Assembly (NCBI GenBank): GCA_903847095.1
Contig: CAINCQ010000029.1
Coordinates: 5,485-69,484 of the forward strand
Reading direction: 5' to 3'
Length of the DNA stretch: 64,000 nt
Source of the DNA: an uncultured bacterium
GTDB taxonomy: Bacteria; Patescibacteriota; Minisyncoccia; Minisyncoccales; UBA5738
This document shows, one piece after another, positions 4,222-20,713 of this stretch (its first letter is position 1; every line of letters begins with the position of its first letter). Below the pieces are notes generated by a model, which saw only the letters and a program-made list of their open reading frames with translations, did no database searches and had not been told where the DNA came from. A program made the position numbers and the translations under genes.

Positions 4222-5862
4222 TCAGTCCAAAAAAAGCCGGGCAATTCGCAGCTCTTCGTAAGTTGCCTTTTCCCCAAGTTGCTCTTTGGCGCGGGCGAGC
4301 GGATATCCGCCTGTTTCGGTCTTGAATTTCAAAATAGCTTTTTTCATCATACCGATCCTCTTGGGACCGGCCTTTTTTTGCAGATACTCGATATCGGGCA
4401 GCCGCCCCTCTTTTTTCAGTTTTTCCAAATGCTCCAAAATCGTGGCTAATTTCAATTTCCGTTTTTTTACAATTTCCTCCAGCGGAGTCTTTCCTTCGAT
4501 CATCAAGCGTGTTTGCTCCATCGTCGATATCGCTTGCTTTTTATGCGATCGATGCGGTTCGGACAGATCGCTGGTCTTATTTTCCAATGGCGATCGGTCA
4601 ATCGCCTCGCGGATTTCTTTAGCGTCCCTTTCGGAATCTTTTTTTAATTCCCCGTCGAATTCCAGGACTTCCTCATCCACCTGTAAGGCGTTTTCGTTGA
4701 ATCCGACCAGCGTCAAACCTTCAAGCGACCGCACGCGCGACAAAGCCACATACCCCATGCCGCGCTCGAATGATCTTGTAAGGTCTATCTTGGCCGCGTC
4801 CAAACTCATTCCCTGGCTCTTATGAACCGTGATCGCCCAAGCCAGACGCAATGGATATTGGATGATCTCGGCTTTGACCTTGCCGTTCTCCTCGATCATC
4901 CAATTGGCCAAACCCACGTCGAACCGCCGGCCGTTATCCGCCAAAACCACGATCCGATTATTATCCAGTTCCTCGACGACCCCCAGCGTGCCGTTGACAT
5001 ATCCTTCCTCGAAATTGTTTTTCACGAACATCACCCTGGCCCCGACTTTTAGTTTTAAAACATCGGGCGCAAGGCATCCCCGTTTGACCACTTCGACCAG
5101 ATTGTTCCCGCCCCTCGCTTCCATTTTATATTCATACGCCTTGCCCGATATTTTCATCAACTCCAGTGAATTTTCCAGATCGACGTCGCAATTCAAACAG
5201 TAAAGCTTGGTTGGTTCCAAATCTTTTTTTATGCCGCATCCAACACGGTTTTCCAAATGCCGCCGCTCACGCCCTAAAACCGCGTTGCTTCTGATCGCGT
5301 TTAACACATCGATGAAATCACTGTCGTTCTGACGGTGCTGCTCGTCCAGATAGCAGATCTTCAGATCAAGTAATTGCCACGCCCGGGAATGATAAGCAAA
5401 GCGCGCTTTCGGTTCGTCTAACCGCGCCACCGGCGGCAACTGGAAAAAATCCCCACAAAGAATAACTTGCACGCCGCCGAACGGAAGAGTGTTTTGTTTG
5501 AATTCACGAAACAAATTATCGACCAGATCCAACCGGTAATGGTGAAGCATCGATATTTCATCGATCACCAAAACCTCGGCTTTTTTATACCGGCTCTTCA
5601 GATAGTATCTTTCCTTTAAATCTTTCAACGTCTGTTCGTCCAGGCTGTCGCGAATGCCAAGACCGGTCCAGGAATGAATCGTCATCCCGTTGATATGGGT
5701 TGCCGCTATCCCCGTCGATGCGGTTATCGCCGCTCCAATGTTGTTTTGCTTAAGATATTCGATATACCGGTTCAATAAAAAAGTCTTGCCGCTGCCCGCG
5801 GCTCCCGTAATAAAAACATTGTTGCCCCTTTTGAGGATTTCGTACGCTTCGTTCTGTGTCAT
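4222..5862 (-). CDS. PIF1/RecD-like SF1 DNA helicase with C-terminal HTH-like tail
   Basis: 546 aa; GAAGSGKTFLL Walker A, VLVIDEISM Walker B, GDFFQLPPV, AITVHKSQG, GYVALSRV motifs typical of PIF1/RecD family. Confidence 0.85.
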   Translation of the reverse strand: MTQNEAYEILKRGNNVFITGAAGSGKTFLLNRYIEYLKQNNIGAAITASTGIAATHINGMTIHSWTGLGIRDSLDEQTLKDLKERYYLKSRYKKAEVLVIDEISMLHHYRLDLVDNLFREFKQNTLPFGGVQVILCGDFFQLPPVARLDEPKARFAYHSRAWQLLDLKICYLDEQHRQNDSDFIDVLNAIRSNAVLGRERRHLENRVGCGIKKDLEPTKLYCLNCDVDLENSLELMKISGKAYEYKMEARGGNNLVEVVKRGCLAPDVLKLKVGARVMFVKNNFEEGYVNGTLGVVEELDNNRIVVLADNGRRFDVGLANWMIEENGKVKAEIIQYPLRLAWAITVHKSQGMSLDAAKIDLTRSFERGMGYVALSRVRSLEGLTLVGFNENALQVDEEVLEFDGELKKDSERDAKEIREAIDRSPLENKTSDLSEPHRSHKKQAISTMEQTRLMIEGKTPLEEIVKKRKLKLATILEHLEKLKKEGRLPDIEYLQKKAGPKRIGMMKKAILKFKTETGGYPLARAKEQLGEKATYEELRIARLFLD

Positions 5863-7427: not shown

Positions 7428-7862
7428 TCATGGCCCATTAGCCTCCACTTCCTGCTCTTTCAGATAATTTATCACTTCCGATGCGGTCTCGTCCAGATTG
7501 CGATTATTCATTTCCGAAATCATTGCCGGCCCCGATTCGCCGATCAGGTTTTCCAGCCGCGCTATCGCAACCAGCGTGAATTTTCTTTTCTCCGTGGCCA
7601 ACCAGTCGACATCCAGATAGCATATTGCCGCCATCAGGTCCCCGACTAACGGTAGAGCCAGCCAAGACTCTTCGTCATTGAAACTCAGACGCTTGGAATA
7701 AAATACGAGGCCTTGCCGCGCGGCGTCCAATTCATAATATTTCATCTTTTGCCCTTCCGACCATTGGCTCGCCAGATCAAGGGCCTTTATTACGCTGGTA
7801 TCCCCCGCCATCGCTGTTTTTTCTACGCTTCGTCTTACCACTTTGGCGGCCACGGCAACCAT
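7428..7862 (-). CDS. hypothetical protein
   Basis: 144-aa ORF; no SD; lies 22 nt downstream of, and in frame with, the small ORF 7887-7967. Confidence 0.5.
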   Translation of the reverse strand: MVAVAAKVVRRSVEKTAMAGDTSVIKALDLASQWSEGQKMKYYELDAARQGLVFYSKRLSFNDEESWLALPLVGDLMAAICYLDVDWLATEKRKFTLVAIARLENLIGESGPAMISEMNNRNLDETASEVINYLKEQEVEANGP

Positions 7863-7886
7863 TTTTCTTGCCTGATCATTACCTGG

Positions 7887-7967
7887 TTAGACCTTCAATC
7901 CCGCCATGCAAACCATCAGCTTTAAACGGGCGGATGGTCTCATTTTGTCCAATTCAATTTTAGTCAT
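7887..7967 (-). CDS. 26-aa leader ORF (MTKIELDKMRPSARLKLMVCMAGLKV)
   Basis: my translation; strong AAAAGGAGG SD 4 nt upstream of ATG 7965-7967; directly downstream of promoter 7995-8023. Confidence 0.3.
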   Translation of the reverse strand: MTKIELDKMRPSARLKLMVCMAGLKV

Positions 7968-7994
7968 AAAACCTCCTTTTAAGGAACCTTCATT

Positions 7995-8023
7995 ATCATA
8001 ATACTATGCCTCCGATCAGTCAA
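7995..8023 (-). promoter_or_regulatory. sigma70-type promoter (TTGACT-N17-TATGAT, minus strand)
   Basis: plus-strand agtcaa 8018-8023 and atcata 7995-8000. Confidence 0.55.
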
Positions 8024-8438
8024 TAACTTCTACCAACCCCTTAAAGCAAGTAGTAGCGTTTGGCGGATTTTTTCTCCTTCTTTGCCGACTGCGCGGCGGC
8101 TCAGCGCGTCTTACCTTTAAAACCCCTGCCAAAGCCCGCCTATGCTCATTTAAAGCATCGTTATACCAGAATAGAGGGAAGAGGCCGTCTTTAATTATTT
8201 GAACGTCCTGATGCCTTTTTACTTCGAGTTTGCTGTTGTTGGTCGACTTAAAAAGCAGGTACGTTCAGCATTCTGCTTTATCGATTATTTATTTTTTCGG
8301 CGTTAATTTGAAACGATTCGTATTAATCGCCACTTTCCGAACTGATCGTTTTTCTCGACAGACTCTCTAAACTCCGCCGGGGATAATTTTAAGGAGTCCG
8401 TTTTTTGTCGATCTTGATCAATTTTCGCGATGTTTTTA

Positions 8439-8467
8439 TTGACAACGGGGTTTAAAAAAAGTAAAAC
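8439..8467 (+). promoter_or_regulatory. sigma70-type promoter (TTGACA-N17-TAAAAC)
   Basis: ttgaca 8439-8444, taaaac 8462-8467, upstream of ORF 8495. Confidence 0.45.
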
Positions 8468-8494
8468 CTATCCAGTGAAACCAAGCTTGCGGAA

Positions 8495-11274: not shown

Positions 11275-12303
11275 CTACTGCGCGCAATCGGAAAGCATGT
11301 CGCCCGGAATTCCATATTTTGAAAGGCCGCAAGGAATCGGGCCCTTTCCGTCAAAAACGATCTCCCATTTACCGCCGGTTTTTTTTGCGAAGAATATTCC
11401 TCCCGGCACTTCCGTATCCAGACTCAGGCTGCCGCGGATAAAGTCTTCCGTTCCTTTTTCCAAAACTACCGAAATTGTTTTGGCATATTTTGGATATTTC
11501 AAGGCAAATTGCTGCCTTAACGTTTCCTTTGTCGATTCATCCGGAACCGTGATTCCGATACAGCGCCATTCGATTTCTGCGGCCTTGGTCTCCTCGCTGA
11601 CAACGCAGACAGGATGGCATCCGGGTTTGGTCGCATTCAAATTGGCATCAAACCACCAAGTCTTGGTGGTCTCATTGCGCGAGCCCGGACCCAAAGCCTC
11701 TCCGCCTTTAATACAGGATTTTCCGGCAATGATCCGGGCCTCGGCCTCGCTCATTATCGGATTCGCCTCTCGCAATTGGTTATCGATGACCAGAAAATAT
11801 TTACTCATACCCACCGAAGGCGCATCAGCCATCGGTTCATCCGTTTTGCGATCCAGATAATTGACGACGATGTTCCCGCCGCGGTACTCGGTAGCTTGAG
11901 GAGCGATCCGGTCTCCCAAAAATAAGGCGTTGCTGCCAAAATACCCGCCTTTTCCGCTAAGCAGGGCGGCGACATAATAAAAAATCCCGGTTCCGCCGCT
12001 GTCTTGGGTCAAAAGAAAAGCAACATCATCAACGCCATCGCCGTTAAAATCTCCAACGGCCTCGTTACCAAAAAACCGCGTAATGGTCATTGAAACGGTA
12101 CCCCCTTCGATCCCCACTCTCGATTCGCCATTTTCAAGCTTAACCGGATTACCTTCAATAAAATAAGTGGCGTTTTTCGGATCCGGCGCTCTTTTTTGAC
12201 CAGGCGCGACATCTGCAAACTCCGGTGAAAGTAAAAAGATCAAACAACCGGCTCCACCCAAAACAACTAAAACAACGGCCAGCAAAATAATTTTTTTATT
12301 CAT
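11275..12303 (-). CDS. secreted/anchored protein with FG-GAP/VCBS-like segment and a conserved 4-Cys domain
   Basis: 342 aa; N-terminal TM (IILLAVVLVVLGGAGCLIFLL); GDFNGDGVDDVAFLL; CIKGGEAL...TWWFDANLNATKPGCHPVCVVSEE...WRC domain shared with ORF 20006-20713. Confidence 0.65.
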   Translation of the reverse strand: MNKKIILLAVVLVVLGGAGCLIFLLSPEFADVAPGQKRAPDPKNATYFIEGNPVKLENGESRVGIEGGTVSMTITRFFGNEAVGDFNGDGVDDVAFLLTQDSGGTGIFYYVAALLSGKGGYFGSNALFLGDRIAPQATEYRGGNIVVNYLDRKTDEPMADAPSVGMSKYFLVIDNQLREANPIMSEAEARIIAGKSCIKGGEALGPGSRNETTKTWWFDANLNATKPGCHPVCVVSEETKAAEIEWRCIGITVPDESTKETLRQQFALKYPKYAKTISVVLEKGTEDFIRGSLSLDTEVPGGIFFAKKTGGKWEIVFDGKGPIPCGLSKYGIPGDMLSDCAQ

Positions 12304-12412: not shown

Positions 12413-12778
12413 TTAGGCCTCCCTTGCCCAAGAAGTAATCTCGCCGAGGTCGTCGGGAGATTTCGGAAAAAAAACCGGCAAGCCTTTCTTTTTGGCGAAT
12501 TCTATTTCCGCTCGCGAACCACTGGAATTTTCCCAGCCTGGAATCGCCATGATCGCATCCGCCGTTTTTTGTAAAAAGACCATGTCGAGCTCGCGATAAA
12601 AATTCTCATCCGCGTTGGCTTTAATTTCGAAATGCTCGGTATGATTATGAGGACAAAAAAAACCCATACCCGCGTTCGCCAGCGCGATCTGGTATTTTTC
12701 GGCGTGCCGGATGTTATCGTGGATCTTTGATCTGTCTCCGTTCCCGAAATAAGGTCCGGCGATAAAAACTATTTTCAT
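12413..12778 (-). CDS. DUF4406 / nucleoside 2-deoxyribosyltransferase-like protein
   Basis: 121 aa; MKIVFIAGPY...AIPGWENSSGSRAEIEFAKKKGLPVFF pattern as I recall for DUF4406. Confidence 0.55.
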   Translation of the reverse strand: MKIVFIAGPYFGNGDRSKIHDNIRHAEKYQIALANAGMGFFCPHNHTEHFEIKANADENFYRELDMVFLQKTADAIMAIPGWENSSGSRAEIEFAKKKGLPVFFPKSPDDLGEITSWAREA

Positions 12779-12839
12779 AAAGCGCTTTGATCGACTTAAT
12801 TAGCTTAATGGGCTTACCCCTCTTCTTGCTTACCCGCTT

Positions 12840-13328
12840 TTAGTCAGCCATCTTTGCAAACAAGACTACGTAGTTCTTGCCGTACGCTTTGGCGCATTTT
12901 GGACAGGTAGTATAGAAAAAATATAGTTTATCGGACTTCTTGTTTTTGCTTTCGACATATTTCTTCATCTCCTCCGCCCACTTTCCGGCATTTTGATAAG
13001 GCCCCTCGAACACTTTGGCGAGGAATGACCCGGAAATCTTGGCCATTTGCGCGCCCGGTACCTCCTTTGCCACCTCGATATAAATATCCGCGCCCCAAAG
13101 GGATTTTTCATCAGCCAACATCAAATGGTTCTTTGTTTTTGCCCCGGCCTTCTCGATCAGCGCCATATTCTTGACCATAATCCGGCCCATATTAAGGGGC
13201 ATATGTAAAAAGCTCGTGACGTGATCTTTAACGAAGATCTTATCGCGCCACACAACCTCTTTATCCTGCCATAACTTAGGATCGAACGGCTCACAACATC
13301 CGGTTGGTTTGATTGTTTGGTTTTCCAT
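12840..13328 (-). CDS. conserved hypothetical protein (CCEPFDP ... TTCPKCAKAYGKNYVV family)
   Basis: 162 aa; motif pattern recalled from a widespread uncharacterised family. Confidence 0.5.
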   Translation of the reverse strand: MENQTIKPTGCCEPFDPKLWQDKEVVWRDKIFVKDHVTSFLHMPLNMGRIMVKNMALIEKAGAKTKNHLMLADEKSLWGADIYIEVAKEVPGAQMAKISGSFLAKVFEGPYQNAGKWAEEMKKYVESKNKKSDKLYFFYTTCPKCAKAYGKNYVVLFAKMAD

Positions 13329-13466
13329 AATTTATTGATTGATCATTCAAAGTCCTTCCTTATTTTAACCTAAGGTTTTTTAAAGAAAAAATCAATAAAG
13401 CAAAAACCGGTAGGTTATAACGATACCGATTCGATGTATGGGTCTGTGACTTCTCGCTCTTCTCGC

Positions 13467-14918
13467 TTATCCCTGGCTTATCCTCACCCTCGGCCGAAAT
13501 CCCGCGTTCAAAACCGCGCGCTTCCAATCGGCGATCTTCATTAAAAAATTAAGCGAATTCACTTCCGACAAACGGCCGATCGTCCCCGATTTTCCGGGTG
13601 CCAGCCATAAACCGATCCTTTGCACATCCAACGTCTGGTTGGCCAGCTCGATCTGGCCGCGCCCGGCTTGTAAATATTTGGTTGCATTAATCGCCTGATC
13701 CACGGCGTAATTTACCGATTCCGGAGAACCGGTTTTGACGAAATACAAGGTTCCGTCTTTGAATAGATCCAGCTTGTTCACCCGGAATTTCTCGTTTATG
13801 GCCGCGAGCCCCAAACGGCAATCGGTGAAACCCGCTTTCGCCTGCGCTTCAATGAATTCCTCCTGACCGCCCGCCGCCATGCCACTGTCTTTTTCGATGG
13901 TAACCGTATCGGCCTCGCGCCGCAGAAAATTCAGGAACGACTGGTTATAGCGATACCATTTTCCGTCGATCAAACAGGTTCGGTTTTCCCCGTCGAAATA
14001 ATCGATCATCGCCTTGAAATTCTTGGAACGCTCGTGCCCTTTCGGGTCATATACTCTCACTTTGATATCGTTAAGTTGCTCCATCAGATTAACGTTCTCC
14101 GTATTCATAAAATTCTGCAAGGCCAGCTTGTTCATCTCCCCCTTGTCGGAAAGGTTGCCATAGGAACCTTGCAGGTAAAAAGAGTATTGGCAATCGTCAT
14201 TGGCGATCAACGCCACCCTATCGGACTCGTTGCTGGATAACACCTTGACCAATGACGCATCCAAGTCTTTTAACAGAATCGAGTCGCGTATCGAAACCAC
14301 TTTGGGCAGGCCGATGCGAGCCGGCTGGGTAAGAACCTCCTCGATCCTTTTAATGAACGGCGGCAGTTGGTCCGGGCCGATATCCAAAGAAAATTGCACC
14401 GCGGTGCCGAAATTCGCCTCGTTGCCCCACAATGCCGGATCAACCGTCGCGGCGCGGATCATATCCAGCGATTCGCCGCTCTCGAATTCTATCCGGTTTC
14501 CCGACTGGTAGGTTGAAGCCACCCGGTTGCGGCGCGACTTGTAGAATTTGGAATTTTTTATCTTCACATGATCGCTGGCGATGCGCTCGGCCATATTTAT
14601 CCCGAAATCCGGGTCGCAATAGTTTTTTATCTGGATAAAAGTCTTGCCCAGCGCCGCCGCGTAGCAAAAAGTATCGCCATAAACAAAAAAAGCCGCGCAA
14701 TGAACCACGTTCTTGGGCGGCTCGACGCCCTCGAAGAAATCCCGGTAGGTTTTGGTCCACCAGATATCGCTACCGTCCGGTACCCGCGAATACATGAATT
14801 CAAGCACGCAATCACCTGTCTCAACCTTCTTGGCCGATTCCAGCCCCGCCGCTCTCAATTTCCCGATCAACTCAAACCTCTTTTCCGGAATTATCCGGTA
14901 CAGATTGTACTTTGCCAT
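13467..14918 (-). CDS. TIGR04141/DUF6119-like sporadically distributed protein (putative PD-(D/E)xK-type C-terminal core)
   Basis: 483 aa; size, MAKYNLYRI start and C-terminal KLDLFKDGTLYFVKTGSPESVNYAVDQ (D ... hhVK ... Q) fit my recollection of this family. Confidence 0.5.
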   Translation of the reverse strand: MAKYNLYRIIPEKRFELIGKLRAAGLESAKKVETGDCVLEFMYSRVPDGSDIWWTKTYRDFFEGVEPPKNVVHCAAFFVYGDTFCYAAALGKTFIQIKNYCDPDFGINMAERIASDHVKIKNSKFYKSRRNRVASTYQSGNRIEFESGESLDMIRAATVDPALWGNEANFGTAVQFSLDIGPDQLPPFIKRIEEVLTQPARIGLPKVVSIRDSILLKDLDASLVKVLSSNESDRVALIANDDCQYSFYLQGSYGNLSDKGEMNKLALQNFMNTENVNLMEQLNDIKVRVYDPKGHERSKNFKAMIDYFDGENRTCLIDGKWYRYNQSFLNFLRREADTVTIEKDSGMAAGGQEEFIEAQAKAGFTDCRLGLAAINEKFRVNKLDLFKDGTLYFVKTGSPESVNYAVDQAINATKYLQAGRGQIELANQTLDVQRIGLWLAPGKSGTIGRLSEVNSLNFLMKIADWKRAVLNAGFRPRVRISQG

Positions 14919-15091
14919 AAATTATATACTCGTTTATAACGCGTAAGTTATACCAAAAAAAACAAAAACGGGTTCGTAACCCGTAATCATTTTAAACCAT
15001 TTCTTAAAACCAATCAAAAAATCTTCCAAACATGCTTTCCTTACCATGGCGAGTTTTATCCGCGCCAACTCTAGGAACCAATTGACGGTAT

Positions 15092-15508
15092 CTAGCTCTT
15101 ATATTTTTTTCCATCGACCACGTAAGATGCGTATTTTATAGGAATCCGGCTGCCGCGCTTCCAATAAGCGGCCACGGATTTACCGACATATTTTTCGCGA
15201 AGTTCATCCGTCGCGACCTCACCCTCGAAATAATACTTGCCCCACTCGTCCGCTTTCAGCCACTGGGAAACAATATAAATTTCTTTGATAAATCCTTGAT
15301 AAACGGCGCAAGCGATCCTTATTTTTTGGGCGCGTTTGATATTTATTGATAAAAGGGATCTAGTTGCTTCATACAAAAAATCTTTACCCATGCTCGGCTG
15401 GTAAAGCTGGCCAAGGTTAATAAGGATCGCCGGCTCGCCAAAAACCGCCTCCTCAAGATCCTGGTCCTCAACCTCTTGATTATGCTCAATGCCGTCTTTA
15501 TACTCCAT
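15092..15508 (-). CDS. hypothetical protein
   Basis: 138-aa ORF between TIGR04141-like and DUF2779-like genes; acidic N terminus. Confidence 0.5.
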   Translation of the reverse strand: MEYKDGIEHNQEVEDQDLEEAVFGEPAILINLGQLYQPSMGKDFLYEATRSLLSINIKRAQKIRIACAVYQGFIKEIYIVSQWLKADEWGKYYFEGEVATDELREKYVGKSVAAYWKRGSRIPIKYASYVVDGKKYKS

Positions 15509-15642
15509 AATTTTACTTCTATCCCGTTATATAAATTTATTTAATTTCTTAATGTATTTCGACACCGCAGGGCATTAACCCTTCTGATCGACCAAAGGAG
15601 TAGCTCCTTTGGAATCCTCGAATTTCAAAACATCCGCCACGC

Positions 15643-17112
15643 TTATAACTTCTTTAAGACTTCCAGGATTTCTACCATCGCCAGGGTATCCAACCGGCAA
15701 TAGGCCAGCATATCTTTGGCCAAATCATCTTTTTCTTTCTGACCGATTTTTGGATCGTTTACTTTCAACCAGCTTTCCGAAGCGGTGCCGCCTTCCTGAA
15801 TGTTTAGATCTTTATAAGACAACTTGGGAACCATTACCGGCAAGACGCGTTTGATCGAAGCGCTTCCTTTAAAATCTTTGTGCACGTAATAGCCTTTTTT
15901 GAAACATTGCATCAGGTCGTACATTCTGTCGTTTACGGATTTTAAAAACAGGGCGTGTTGTTTTTTTCTTTCCCTCATTTCCTTGTTACAACCCATTTCA
16001 AAGCTTTTATTCCACGAAATAAGGCTCCCTTTTTCTCCCACGAATTTTGATAGCGATCCGAGCAGCTCGGATGTCGGGTCTTTGATGCTGGCACACAAAT
16101 ATTGATAATGCTCCAATAGGGCATCCGGCGATCTTTTAATATGCAACGAGTATTGAAAAACTATCCTTTGGTAGGGCTTATAACCGTCAAACAGCGGAAC
16201 AGCCGGACCAAAGGTTTCGTAATCCAAGAAATATAGAGGATACTCCAAAGACGATAATTCCTCTTTGATCGCCAAGGAATCGATAAAAACTTTTTTGCTT
16301 TTTACCGCGTTAATGTATCCCAATCCGCTCTTATTGGTAACTATTCCTTCGGGGATATCTTTTATTTCCAAGATCCCTTGGTCGAGCAGCATTTCCAATT
16401 TTTCCGTACTCAACCCTCCGGCAATGCCATAAATGGAATCTTTCGGCAAATGTTTCCGGCAATGATCGCTGAATTCGCAATCGTAGGGCGAATGACACTG
16501 CTTTAATATCTTTACCTCCGGCTCGTTTTTATTTTCCAAAATTTTATGGGCCATTTCGATATCCAGGCCCACCTTTTTGATCAAAGCTTCCACGGCTCGC
16601 GTAACGTCAACGATTTTTAAAAACTTTTTAGGGTCTATGGGTCCCCGCCGCAAAAATTCACCGTTAACGCAAATAACGTAAAGCTTTCCGATCTTTAACC
16701 AATTTTCTTCAAAACAGATCTTTTGAAAAGCCAGATCGATCAAATGGATATCTTTGACTTGGGTTGAACTTTTTACCTCATAAATATCCCAATTGCCGCT
16801 TTTTGTATACCGCCTGATGATATCCGCCCGGCAAAAAACCTTCCAATTGGAAATCGTGGGCTGAAAGATCGTTTTCTGGCGCGCCTTGACCAGTTTCTTG
16901 GTCTTGGCTACCGCCTCGGCAATATCCTTATCGTAGGCACTAACGCCGGCCGGAAAAAGTTTATAAGCGTAATTCTCCACTTCATAACCTTCGTCAAAAA
17001 TCCGCTTCAGGGCGGATTTTGCTTCCGGCGATACCAGGTCCTGCCGGTATTTATGAAGCCAAAGATATTTATAGCACTGCGTATATTTTAGAAAATCCGA
17101 TTTTGTAAGCAT
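15643..17112 (-). CDS. DUF2779-like protein (Cas4/RecB-like Fe-S nuclease N-domain plus DxE exonuclease-like C-domain)
   Basis: 489 aa; MLTKSDFLKYTQCYKYLWL start, Cys cluster QCHSPYDCEFSDHC, YFLDYETF motif. Confidence 0.65.
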   Translation of the reverse strand: MLTKSDFLKYTQCYKYLWLHKYRQDLVSPEAKSALKRIFDEGYEVENYAYKLFPAGVSAYDKDIAEAVAKTKKLVKARQKTIFQPTISNWKVFCRADIIRRYTKSGNWDIYEVKSSTQVKDIHLIDLAFQKICFEENWLKIGKLYVICVNGEFLRRGPIDPKKFLKIVDVTRAVEALIKKVGLDIEMAHKILENKNEPEVKILKQCHSPYDCEFSDHCRKHLPKDSIYGIAGGLSTEKLEMLLDQGILEIKDIPEGIVTNKSGLGYINAVKSKKVFIDSLAIKEELSSLEYPLYFLDYETFGPAVPLFDGYKPYQRIVFQYSLHIKRSPDALLEHYQYLCASIKDPTSELLGSLSKFVGEKGSLISWNKSFEMGCNKEMRERKKQHALFLKSVNDRMYDLMQCFKKGYYVHKDFKGSASIKRVLPVMVPKLSYKDLNIQEGGTASESWLKVNDPKIGQKEKDDLAKDMLAYCRLDTLAMVEILEVLKKL

Positions 17113-20005: not shown

Positions 20006-20713
20006 TTACTTGCATTCCCCGGCCGCGTAGGTTTTAACCAGCGAATTCAGGCAGGCAACGCACGCGTTGGAAAAAGTTTGTTTTAACGGTTCGCACGGCG
20101 CTTTCAGGCATTGGATTTCCACGGTCGCGCACACGGGTTCATAAATTTGGGCGCAAGCACCGACTTTCCGGGATTCCTCGGAACAAGTCATGATTTCGGC
20201 AAACGGCTCCGTGAATGTTTCGCCATCGGCTACGCACTGCGCCGGATTGCTGTTCAGAATAGGATTTCCCGCGGCAACACATTCTTGGAAATTAGCGATC
20301 TTGCTTCCGGAGCTGGGCATAATCGCCCCGGTACAGCGCCAGTTGATCTCCGCCGCCATGGTATCCTCGCTGACAACACAAGCCGGATTGCAACCGGGTC
20401 TCGTCGCATTCAAATTGGCATCAAACCACCAAGTTCTTGTTATTTTATTGTAAGTACCCGGCTTCAGCGCTTCACCTCCTTTTATACAATCGCGCTCCGC
20501 GATCGTTTCAGCAACTTGTTCGGTCAAGGCCGATACTTGGTCGGGAACAATCAGCGGTTCGGGCTCCGCGATCGGCGGTTCGGGCTCCGGAACAACGATA
20601 TTGTTGTTCGCTAAATTATTTTGGTTATTTCGATCGTCAATGTACCAAGCGACGGAAACAGCGGCCGCAAAAAGAATAATACTGGATAACACAGCGATAA
20701 TTTTTGTCGACAT
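20006..20713 (-). CDS. secreted protein: shared 4-Cys domain plus C-terminal Kazal-like Cys-rich module
   Basis: 235 aa; N-terminal TM/signal; CIKGGEAL...TWWFDANLNATRPGCNPACVVSED...WRC; C terminus CAQIYEPVCA...TFSNACVAC...GEC. Confidence 0.65.
   Translation of the reverse strand: MSTKIIAVLSSIILFAAAVSVAWYIDDRNNQNNLANNNIVVPEPEPPIAEPEPLIVPDQVSALTEQVAETIAERDCIKGGEALKPGTYNKITRTWWFDANLNATRPGCNPACVVSEDTMAAEINWRCTGAIMPSSGSKIANFQECVAAGNPILNSNPAQCVADGETFTEPFAEIMTCSEESRKVGACAQIYEPVCATVEIQCLKAPCEPLKQTFSNACVACLNSLVKTYAAGECK

Follow-up and report, generated by a model that had tools for sequence, protein, structure and literature searches.

Five adjacent minus-strand genes in an uncultured bacterium of the candidate phyla radiation (CPR; Patescibacteriota, Minisyncoccales, UBA5738) raise the question of whether they constitute a defence system, a defence island, or neither. 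They lie in a stretch of 64,000 nucleotides (GenBank assembly GCA_903847095.1, contig CAINCQ010000029.1, positions 5,485 to 69,484), which is called the window here and whose first nucleotide is position 1. The initial annotation had described the genes as a possible accessory nucleic-acid-targeting island, and the five open reading frames (ORFs) as well as the motif strings quoted from them are present exactly as described. Our preferred reading, with a rough probability of 0.55, is that of a small and loose accessory slot, in which two defence-flavoured and independently expressed genes are found among general DNA and nucleotide enzymes. The two are a stand-alone homologue of a modification-sensing domain, referred to as the reader, and a member of the DUF6119/TIGR04141 family. 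The genes, taken from the ORF list, are as follows.

12413-12778, minus strand: DUF4406 gene (121 aa)
12840-13328, minus strand: Bact_hydrolase gene (162 aa)
13467-14918, minus strand: DUF6119/TIGR04141 gene (483 aa)
15092-15508, minus strand: stand-alone sensing-domain (reader) gene (138 aa)
15643-17112, minus strand: DUF2779 gene (489 aa)

These are real genes and not chance ORFs, as four of the five score far above curated Pfam or NCBIfam cut-offs; homologues of all five are present in other assemblies. At least 16 metagenome contigs carry the block with an unchanged 483-aa protein, and contig L001 (comparison loci carry L numbers throughout) is 99.991% identical to the window across 21.4 kb. 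The taxon names given to close homologues and to the nearest genome point to Candidatus Paceibacterota / Patescibacteria. All relatives compared below are metagenome-assembled, and statements of absence are limited by the ends of their contigs.

The 138-aa protein had been proposed as an immunity component or partner of its nuclease-like neighbours. It is instead recognised by profile and model comparison as a nuclease-less, stand-alone homologue of the C-terminal modification-sensing domain of CMoRE/PD-T4-3, because a PADLOC hidden Markov model, a phmmer search of the PDB and Foldseek all agree. The PADLOC PD-T4-3 model (PDLC04031) matches the protein with an E-value of 1.8e-14 over profile positions 115-193 of 256. 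In the phmmer search residues 24-127 align to residues 140-259 of the 262 residues of CMoRE (9U7U, E 7.8e-9), and 9U75 is likewise matched over its C-terminal domain. The AlphaFold2 (AF2) model is predicted with a local confidence (pLDDT) of 83.7, and a Foldseek search of the PDB places four CMoRE entries at the top (E 3e-9 to 2e-8, query template modelling (TM) scores 0.64-0.70). Only CMoRE entries are significant; the next matches, to YTH domains, VcaM4I and the PUA-like folds of Lon-N and ATP sulfurylase, have E>0.1. Pfam and NCBIfam searches with the 138-aa protein returned no match.

CMoRE/PD-T4-3 is a type IV restriction enzyme of E. coli, proven to act against phages, in which an N-terminal GIY-YIG domain cuts the DNA and the C-terminal domain has been shown experimentally to sense 5-hydroxymethylcytosine (5hmC) or glucosyl-5hmC (PMC12923530). 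The sensing domain was crystallised with the free nucleotide 5hm-dCTP, and the contact to the 5-hydroxyl is made by the main chain of Y127 (PMC12923530). The 2026 structural paper reported no homologues of the sensing domain and described all systems as single-component (PMC12923530). The 138-aa protein has the sequence and fold of this domain in common with CMoRE (9U7U, 9U7Z, 9U75, 9U8D) but differs from the E. coli enzyme in its CPR host, in an identity of only 24-26%, in an acidic N-terminal tail and in the lack of a GIY-YIG domain. No Pfam GIY-YIG/LEM-3 match was obtained for the protein, which is therefore not a CMoRE in single-polypeptide form, and the 134-bp spacer upstream of the gene contains no GIY-YIG remnant. 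The tail, with nine D/E and one K/R among the N-terminal 24 residues, corresponds in the alignment to the linker that joins the domains of fused proteins. L29, Y46, E47, W83, F94, G96 and Y107 are invariant in the family and common to fused and stand-alone forms. By this homology the 138-aa protein would be expected to bind a base that carries a modification, with hypermodified cytosine as the likeliest candidate, either in DNA or as a nucleotide, and since it has no catalytic domain it would act only by binding, autonomously, or through a separately encoded effector.

The sensing domain is not confined to CMoRE. A family profile of 25 homologues, run against 1.84 billion representatives, retrieved 3,044 clusters at E<=1e-3, of which 1,848 reach E<=1e-10. 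Among the best 148 clusters, LEM-3-type GIY-YIG fusions account for 59 and stand-alone proteins (<=170 aa) for 35, and further clusters show fusions to HNH, HEPN_Swt1, Pkinase, HSDR_N, HD, NucS_C, PDDEXK_4, MmeI_N or HTH domains, or two or three tandem copies of the reader domain itself. Judged by these architectures the domain is a widespread and exchangeable sensor module, mobile among effectors, for which Pfam has no model. New here are its stand-alone form and the breadth of the family. They extend the domain beyond single-component CMoRE to about 3,000 clusters with many effectors (GIY-YIG, HNH, HEPN, kinase, HsdR-N and HD), and as about a quarter of the best-scoring clusters come without any effector, the question arises whether modified DNA is sensed in trans or whether binding alone protects. 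Stand-alone readers could moreover supply compact reagents for the detection of hydroxymethylated or glycosylated cytosine. The same modular logic, a small reader combined with interchangeable effectors, is found in the PUA-like readers (YTH, SRA, EVE and ASCH; for example VcaM4I). The fold matches of the 138-aa model to these readers are not significant (E 0.15-1, TM about 0.3) and no Pfam model matches, so that PUA-like kinship is only a lead from the model.

Stand-alone readers occur in varied surroundings. In L072 a 130-aa reader (657-1049), 56% identical to that of the window, shares 4 bp with the Bro-N-domain gene that precedes it and another 4 bp with the 872-aa ResIII-DEAD-RE_endonuc gene that follows; in no other locus is a reader so clearly coupled in translation to a helicase-nuclease. 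The stand-alone readers of L100 and L101 are orphans among metabolic genes and that of L103 adjoins VapBC, and no DUF6119 gene was seen beside the stand-alone readers elsewhere in the loci examined. In L007 the gene called as a 156-aa reader (7713-8471) turned out to be a 5'-truncated GIY-YIG fusion, with the GIY motif lost behind a stop codon and the YIG half and linker retained; its neighbours are a DUF4365/Mrr-like gene, VRR_NUC and RusA. Its truncation ruled this gene out as one half of a split sensor and Mrr-like nuclease pair, and it illustrates how stand-alone readers could arise by decay.

Within its own clade the reader varies more than the genes around it. The relatives' reader genes (L013:7379-7795, L010:6001-6834, L069:4202-5082 and L075:155-1030) were compared with window positions 15092-15508, and the window reader is 54-61% identical to the copy of any relative, against 74-84% for flanking genes; for L013 the readers are 58% and the flanking proteins 74-84% identical. 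The readers of the clade fall into two paralogue groups, a and b; relatives have either one copy or two paralogous ones, frequently as a tandem (125-136 aa plus 138 aa), and the single copy in the window is a third allele that is equidistant from both groups (54-61%). The divergence against conserved flanks and the equidistance from the paralogues show that the reader allele has been exchanged inside a conserved frame, a pattern that is typical of specificity determinants and a sign of an arms race. An extra 189/193-aa gene beside the reader in L004 and L010 was considered as a lost nuclease partner and discarded, as it encodes a signal-peptide/membrane protein with no Pfam match. A viral origin was likewise rejected: a pattern scan of IMG/VR detected neither reader nor DUF6119 relatives, and a BFVD fold search with DUF6119 gave no significant match.

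The second defence-flavoured gene encodes the 483-aa protein, a full-length member of TIGR04141/DUF6119 ("sporadically distributed protein"), a family without described function. It scores 68.7 bits against Pfam DUF6119 (cut-off 27) over residues 42-416 and 59.2 bits against NCBIfam TIGR04141 (cut-off 35), and has 94 full-length homologues. PADLOC and PHROG searches returned no match for the protein, and neither collection has a model for DUF6119. A PD-(D/E)xK-like core had been proposed from the string KLDLFKDGTLYFVKTGSPESVNYAVDQ, located at residue 382, and the part of this proposal that stands is the invariance of D384, K395, D407 and Q408 across 54 DUF6119 homologues. D407 and Q408 lie on the next helix of the AF2 model (pLDDT 81). 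The best structural match of this model is the CdiA-CT(TA271) DNase toxin of PD-(D/E)xK type (4g6u; probability 1.0, 183 columns), for which TM scores of only 0.18/0.35 and an identity of 14% give a hint of a restriction-endonuclease-like fold and not of membership; the match to FokI has an E-value of 0.14. A variant PD-(D/E)xK nuclease is thus a plausible, if weakly supported, reading of the C-terminal domain. The most conserved stretch of DUF6119 lies elsewhere, at residues 121-151 (KIKNSKFYKS ... ESGES, with invariants from K121 to S150). It is modelled with pLDDT <50 and may represent a loop of functional importance that needs a bound partner or nucleic acid to become ordered.

The genomic context of DUF6119 is more telling than its fold. 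Among the 56 genome loci surveyed, the gene overlaps an upstream type III Mod gene and a downstream Res gene in three (L021:7989-9497, L022:4307-5815 and L036:8001-9497), and in a fourth (L043:8001-9488) it overlaps Mod while Res begins 10 bp downstream; these four genomes are phylogenetically distant. It adjoins type I HsdR in L023 (Legionella nagasakiensis), L032 and L063. Chryseobacterium, Paenibacillus phytohabitans and Thermodesulfovibrio thiophilus are further hosts of the gene, and no cultured organism was seen among those with the Mod-DUF6119-Res order. The 71 immediate neighbours include eight ResIII, four N6_N4_Mtase, three HSDR_N and three T5orf172/MUG113 genes, and CPR homologues at 61-70% identity adjoin an Eco57I-type methylase, an S subunit or a Dam-type methylase. 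The position between Mod and Res or beside HsdR in distant phyla marks DUF6119 as a restriction-modification (R-M)-associated protein, and the family is sporadic, as the initial annotation had stated, and R-M-linked elsewhere. The window itself does not show the Mod-DUF6119-Res arrangement, and the Pfam and PADLOC results pooled over its 64 kb include neither a methyltransferase nor a Res/ResIII gene. No published description of the association of DUF6119 with Mod, Res or HsdR was found in the searched literature. The association is new here. The family was known but uncharacterised, a status that it shares with the other larger genes of the block, and its placement between Mod and Res in several phyla is a first functional lead for an orphan family.

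Effectors of the PrrC/EcoprrI type offer a parallel, PrrC being encoded inside a type Ic R-M locus. Like PrrC, DUF6119 is inserted among the subunits of restriction systems, between those of type III or beside HsdR. The likeness is one of genomic placement, and the window has no R-M system; by analogy it suggests that DUF6119 could be an accessory or back-up effector of restriction systems.

In the window DUF6119 is preceded by signals of its own. The spacer between the reader and DUF6119 genes is 173 nt long; in it a promoter-like site is followed by a hairpin with a perfect stem of 7 bp and by a T-run.

14955-15017, minus strand: promoter-like site, hairpin and T-run, between the reader gene and the DUF6119 gene
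15017-14989, minus strand: promoter-like site TTGATT-17-TAAAAT
14984-14968, minus strand: hairpin ACGGGTT-ACG-AACCCGT
to 14955, minus strand: T-run after the hairpin

The leader that remains after the T-run measures about 35 nt in the window and 10-50 nt in aligned relatives. Among Patescibacteria this unit of promoter, hairpin and T-run also precedes DUF6119 in L013, L074, L075, L014 and L018, and it stays with DUF6119 even in the reader-less lineages L014 and L018, whatever gene lies upstream; L016 and L019 have hairpins of other sequence at the same place. Only one compensatory pair (A-U to G-C) is seen in the hairpin among five sequences. The element at 14955-15017 may either separate the reader and DUF6119 transcriptionally or form the 5' leader of DUF6119, and as an attenuator or 5' leader it could serve to keep a toxic gene quiet. 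As with the R-M association, the leader hairpin is absent from the searched literature on the family.

The DUF2779 assignment of the 489-aa protein passes its profile test (PF11074, 133 bits against a cut-off of 23.3, residues 294-419), and the Cas4/RecB-like Fe-S character suggested for the N-terminus agrees with a PADLOC Cas4 match (E 1.4e-6) over residues 3-220. Scores below the NCBIfam cut-offs for TIGR03491, the TM0106 family of RecB-like nucleases (31.1 bits vs 97.45), and for UU173_fam (54.8 vs 225) indicate a protein that is related to the TM0106 and UU173 families without being a member. The motifs QCYKYLW, CHSPYDCEFSDHC and FLDYET begin at residues 12, 206 and 295. Nuclease residues are present as C13, C206, C212 and C218 with D97...E112-V-K114, and exonuclease signatures as D297-x-E299 and Y471-x3-D475, from which the protein is predicted to comprise an N-terminal Cas4/RecB-like nuclease and a C-terminal RNase H-like (DEDD) 3'-5' exonuclease. 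The prediction agrees with the literature, where DUF2779 proteins are described as fusions between a solo-Cas4 and an RNase H-like 3'-5' exonuclease (PMC13621843; PMC3985635). The Mycoplasma homologue MMSYN1_0389 is quasi-essential (PMC13621843) and shares this Cas4-like PD-(D/E)xK and RNase H-like architecture (PMC13621843; PMC3985635), but it has two of the Fe-S cysteines whereas the window protein keeps all four (PMC13621843).

DUF2779 had been taken for a gene of variable regions. It is in fact very widespread in CPR, with more than 6,989 homologues spread across CPR phyla and lineages. In the sister species the gene (L013:5160-6628) is frameshifted by a 1-bp deletion at a poly-A tract in four independent assemblies, from which it follows that the gene is not essential here, and in the otherwise identical strain L001 (7806-9276) it is frameshifted by a change from A6 to A7, the copy in the window being intact. 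The corresponding window sites are 15895-15900 and 15960-15973, the sister-species deletion lying 60 nt upstream of the change in L001. The frameshifts may reflect assembly error, decay or homopolymer phase variation. In L069 DUF2779 is absent between TspO and the readers. The enzyme is probably a general DNA-end-processing factor and not part of a defence unit. A small hairpin (AAAGGAG-CTA-CTCCTTT) lies in the spacer that separates the DUF2779 gene from the reader gene, where positions 15552-15626 on the minus strand gave the sole Rfam match, to the Clostridiales-2 small RNA; at 23.1 bits against a gathering threshold of 58.6 (E 0.09) this match was taken as probably due to chance and a non-coding RNA was rejected.

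The two remaining genes encode small proteins. The 162-aa protein had been labelled as "CPKC-family", which is not a database family, and is a full-length member of Pfam PF20603, Bact_hydrolase (E 3.5e-64). No Bact_hydrolase homologue was found in any other locus of the DUF6119 survey, and in the closest other species, the sister, a DUF7919 gene occupies its position. A role as immunity protein for a CdiA-like DUF6119 was considered and rejected, given that PDB matches to CdiI are non-significant (E about 0.5) and that a DUF7919 gene stands in its place in the sister species, where DUF6119 is unchanged. The 121-aa protein is confirmed as DUF4406 (36.5 bits, cut-off 22) and also exceeds the Pfam cut-offs for DUF1937 (34.3, 23) and DUF7768 (33.3, 26), while its score for Nuc_deoxyrib_tr (16.9 bits) remains below the cut-off of 28.8. 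It matches PHROG 355, "nucleoside 2-deoxyribosyltransferase", with E 8.5e-18 and PDB entry 1t1j with E 0.009, and is thus probably an enzyme with nucleoside or nucleotide substrates, within the nucleoside 2-deoxyribosyltransferase-like superfamily. Literature searches on PF20603, DUF4406 and DUF1937 returned nothing relevant.

The surroundings of the block are not those of a defence island. The remainder of the 64-kb window is housekeeping in character, with MreB, ribosome recycling factor (RRF), ArgRS, an amidase, DNA polymerase III delta' and others. Nearly every gene up to 10 kb on either side of the block lies on the same strand, so that the co-orientation of the five carries little information. 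PADLOC, which the initial annotation had suggested running, gave a partial PD-T4-3 match as the only specific hit in the block and generic helicase models elsewhere in the window. No mobile-element boundary was apparent, with no tRNA nearby (the nearest at 49.6 kb) and no GC anomaly, and no flanking repeats were found around the block except for a 161-nt repeat within two paralogous secreted-protein genes. The comparison with relatives gave a divided answer: gene order is conserved and the overall arrangement syntenic, and changes are confined to the presence of single cassettes and the alleles they carry. Cassette-level variation is what survives of the proposed accessory island, whereas a coherent island does not, the block having neither adjacent recognised defence genes nor variable presence as a whole between close relatives. 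The window is an accessory slot within a housekeeping region.

Within the slot the five genes are probably a loose accessory cluster and not one multi-gene system. This conclusion draws on the separate signals of the reader and DUF6119, the ubiquity and frameshifts of DUF2779, the replacement of Bact_hydrolase, the orphan readers elsewhere, the housekeeping surroundings, and the rarity of co-occurrence, only one of the 56 DUF6119 genome loci (the nearest relative, L013) having a reader, DUF2779 or DUF4406 within 8 kb. In our preferred reading the slot of this CPR chromosome would thus hold independently transcribed nucleic-acid genes. The reader would bind a modified base on its own account or for an effector encoded elsewhere, and DUF6119 would be expressed from its own promoter, behind the hairpin and T-run, most likely as an effector that assists or backs up restriction systems, and its C-terminal domain would probably be a variant PD-(D/E)xK nuclease. 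DUF2779, the nucleoside 2-deoxyribosyltransferase-like DUF4406 protein and Bact_hydrolase would be general DNA- and nucleotide-metabolism genes that share the slot. A part for the reader or DUF6119 in phage defence is something that we infer from their homologies and genomic associations.

The most serious competitor is a split type IV system, a two-gene equivalent of CMoRE in which the 138-aa reader recognises hypermodified phage cytosine and recruits or licenses the DUF6119 nuclease. The reader family is normally fused to nucleases, a reader is translationally coupled to a helicase-nuclease in L072, and DUF6119 brings an invariant D...K...DQ motif, a weak PD-(D/E)xK fold match and R-M linkage; moreover the order of reader then DUF6119 is conserved in the window, L013, L074 and L010/L075. 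All four of these lineages belong to one clade, however, with DUF6119 at least 79% identical where measured, and no reader lies within 8 kb of DUF6119 in the 55 remaining loci, among them those of CPR relatives at 61-75% identity, just as stand-alone readers elsewhere have no DUF6119. The 173-nt spacer with its terminator-like hairpin separates the two genes, the promoter follows DUF6119 even where the reader is absent, and an exchange has altered the reader allele (58% identity) but not DUF6119, which remains at 83% identity. Taken together these observations make a split system unlikely. The bolder proposal that goes with it is equally doubtful: that reader and DUF6119 form an unrecognised two-component CPR restriction system, in which DUF6119 would be a new fold-variant effector that also serves type III and type I R-M and the sensing domain an exchangeable, trans-acting specificity subunit.

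CPR cells depend on salvaged nucleotides, and the cluster could accordingly be imagined to degrade acquired DNA and to handle modified (deoxy)cytidine nucleotides, as a means of nucleic-acid scavenging or nucleotide sanitation. The DUF4406 protein, with its matches to phage and cellular nucleoside 2-deoxyribosyltransferase-like families, would fit such a role, as would the near-universal presence of DUF2779 in CPR, the syntenic position of the block among housekeeping genes, the orphan readers among metabolic genes of other bacteria and the complex of the CMoRE sensing domain with a free nucleotide (PMC12923530). The direct adjacency of DUF4406 to a reader homologue in L009 cuts both ways, as the same pair adjoins HsdR. 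Metabolism accounts poorly for a sporadic DUF6119 that is repeatedly embedded in R-M operons, for a reader family overwhelmingly fused to nucleases and other defence-type effectors, and for a reader fold without known enzymatic residues, and the fast turnover and tandem duplication of reader alleles fit an arms race better; scavenging is therefore slightly more improbable still than a split system. Least probable by a wide measure is a decayed 138-aa ORF, left without function when a CMoRE-type gene lost its GIY-YIG domain, and with unrelated neighbours. The N-terminal tail of the protein does show homology to the linker between the domains of fused forms, and the truncated fusion in L007 shows that intermediates of decay exist elsewhere. 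At least six lineages and two paralogue groups nevertheless retain intact ORFs of 125-141 aa that start properly, all family-invariant residues are kept, the AF2 model is confident, the stand-alone form makes up 35 of the best 148 clusters, and the mere 134 bp upstream hold no GIY-YIG remnant.

Several observations weigh against the loose slot with two defence-flavoured genes that we prefer. The order of reader then DUF6119 is kept in all visible lineages of the clade, which could reflect functional pairing rather than shared ancestry, and complete independence of the genes is at odds with L009, where a DUF4406 gene 80% identical to that of the window lies directly beside both a reader homologue and an HsdR gene. 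The Y127 segment of CMoRE is N-terminal to the confidently aligned region, so that specificity for 5hmC cannot be inferred for the 138-aa protein. The proposed nuclease core of DUF6119 has a phenylalanine, F393, at the (D/E) position of (D/E)xK, its best PDB fold match reaches only E 1.3e-3 (4g6u_A), and sequence and profile searches of the PDB with the 483-aa protein found no match to any solved structure. As PADLOC has no model for DUF6119, the term "defence" rests on guilt by association for this family. Literature searches on DUF6119 and TIGR04141 gave nothing relevant, and no member of DUF6119 or of the stand-alone reader group has been tested experimentally.

Two further features of the neighbourhood deserve mention. 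The block is bracketed by two paralogous Cys-rich secreted or membrane-anchored proteins of 342 and 235 aa, encoded at 11275-12303 and 20006-20713, which contain the 161-nt repeat (11555-11715 and 20328-20488, 77% identity); the sister species has a single copy of this secreted protein in the region examined. A PIF1-family helicase with a C-terminal HTH_40 domain is encoded at 4222-5862 of the window. It lies 3-8 kb from DUF6119 both there and, at 54% identity, in L014:3572-5284, L015:634-2367 and L019:3204-4916, loci of more distant Patescibacteria without reader, DUF2779 or DUF4406, and this proximity may indicate a wider conserved neighbourhood or merely lineage synteny.

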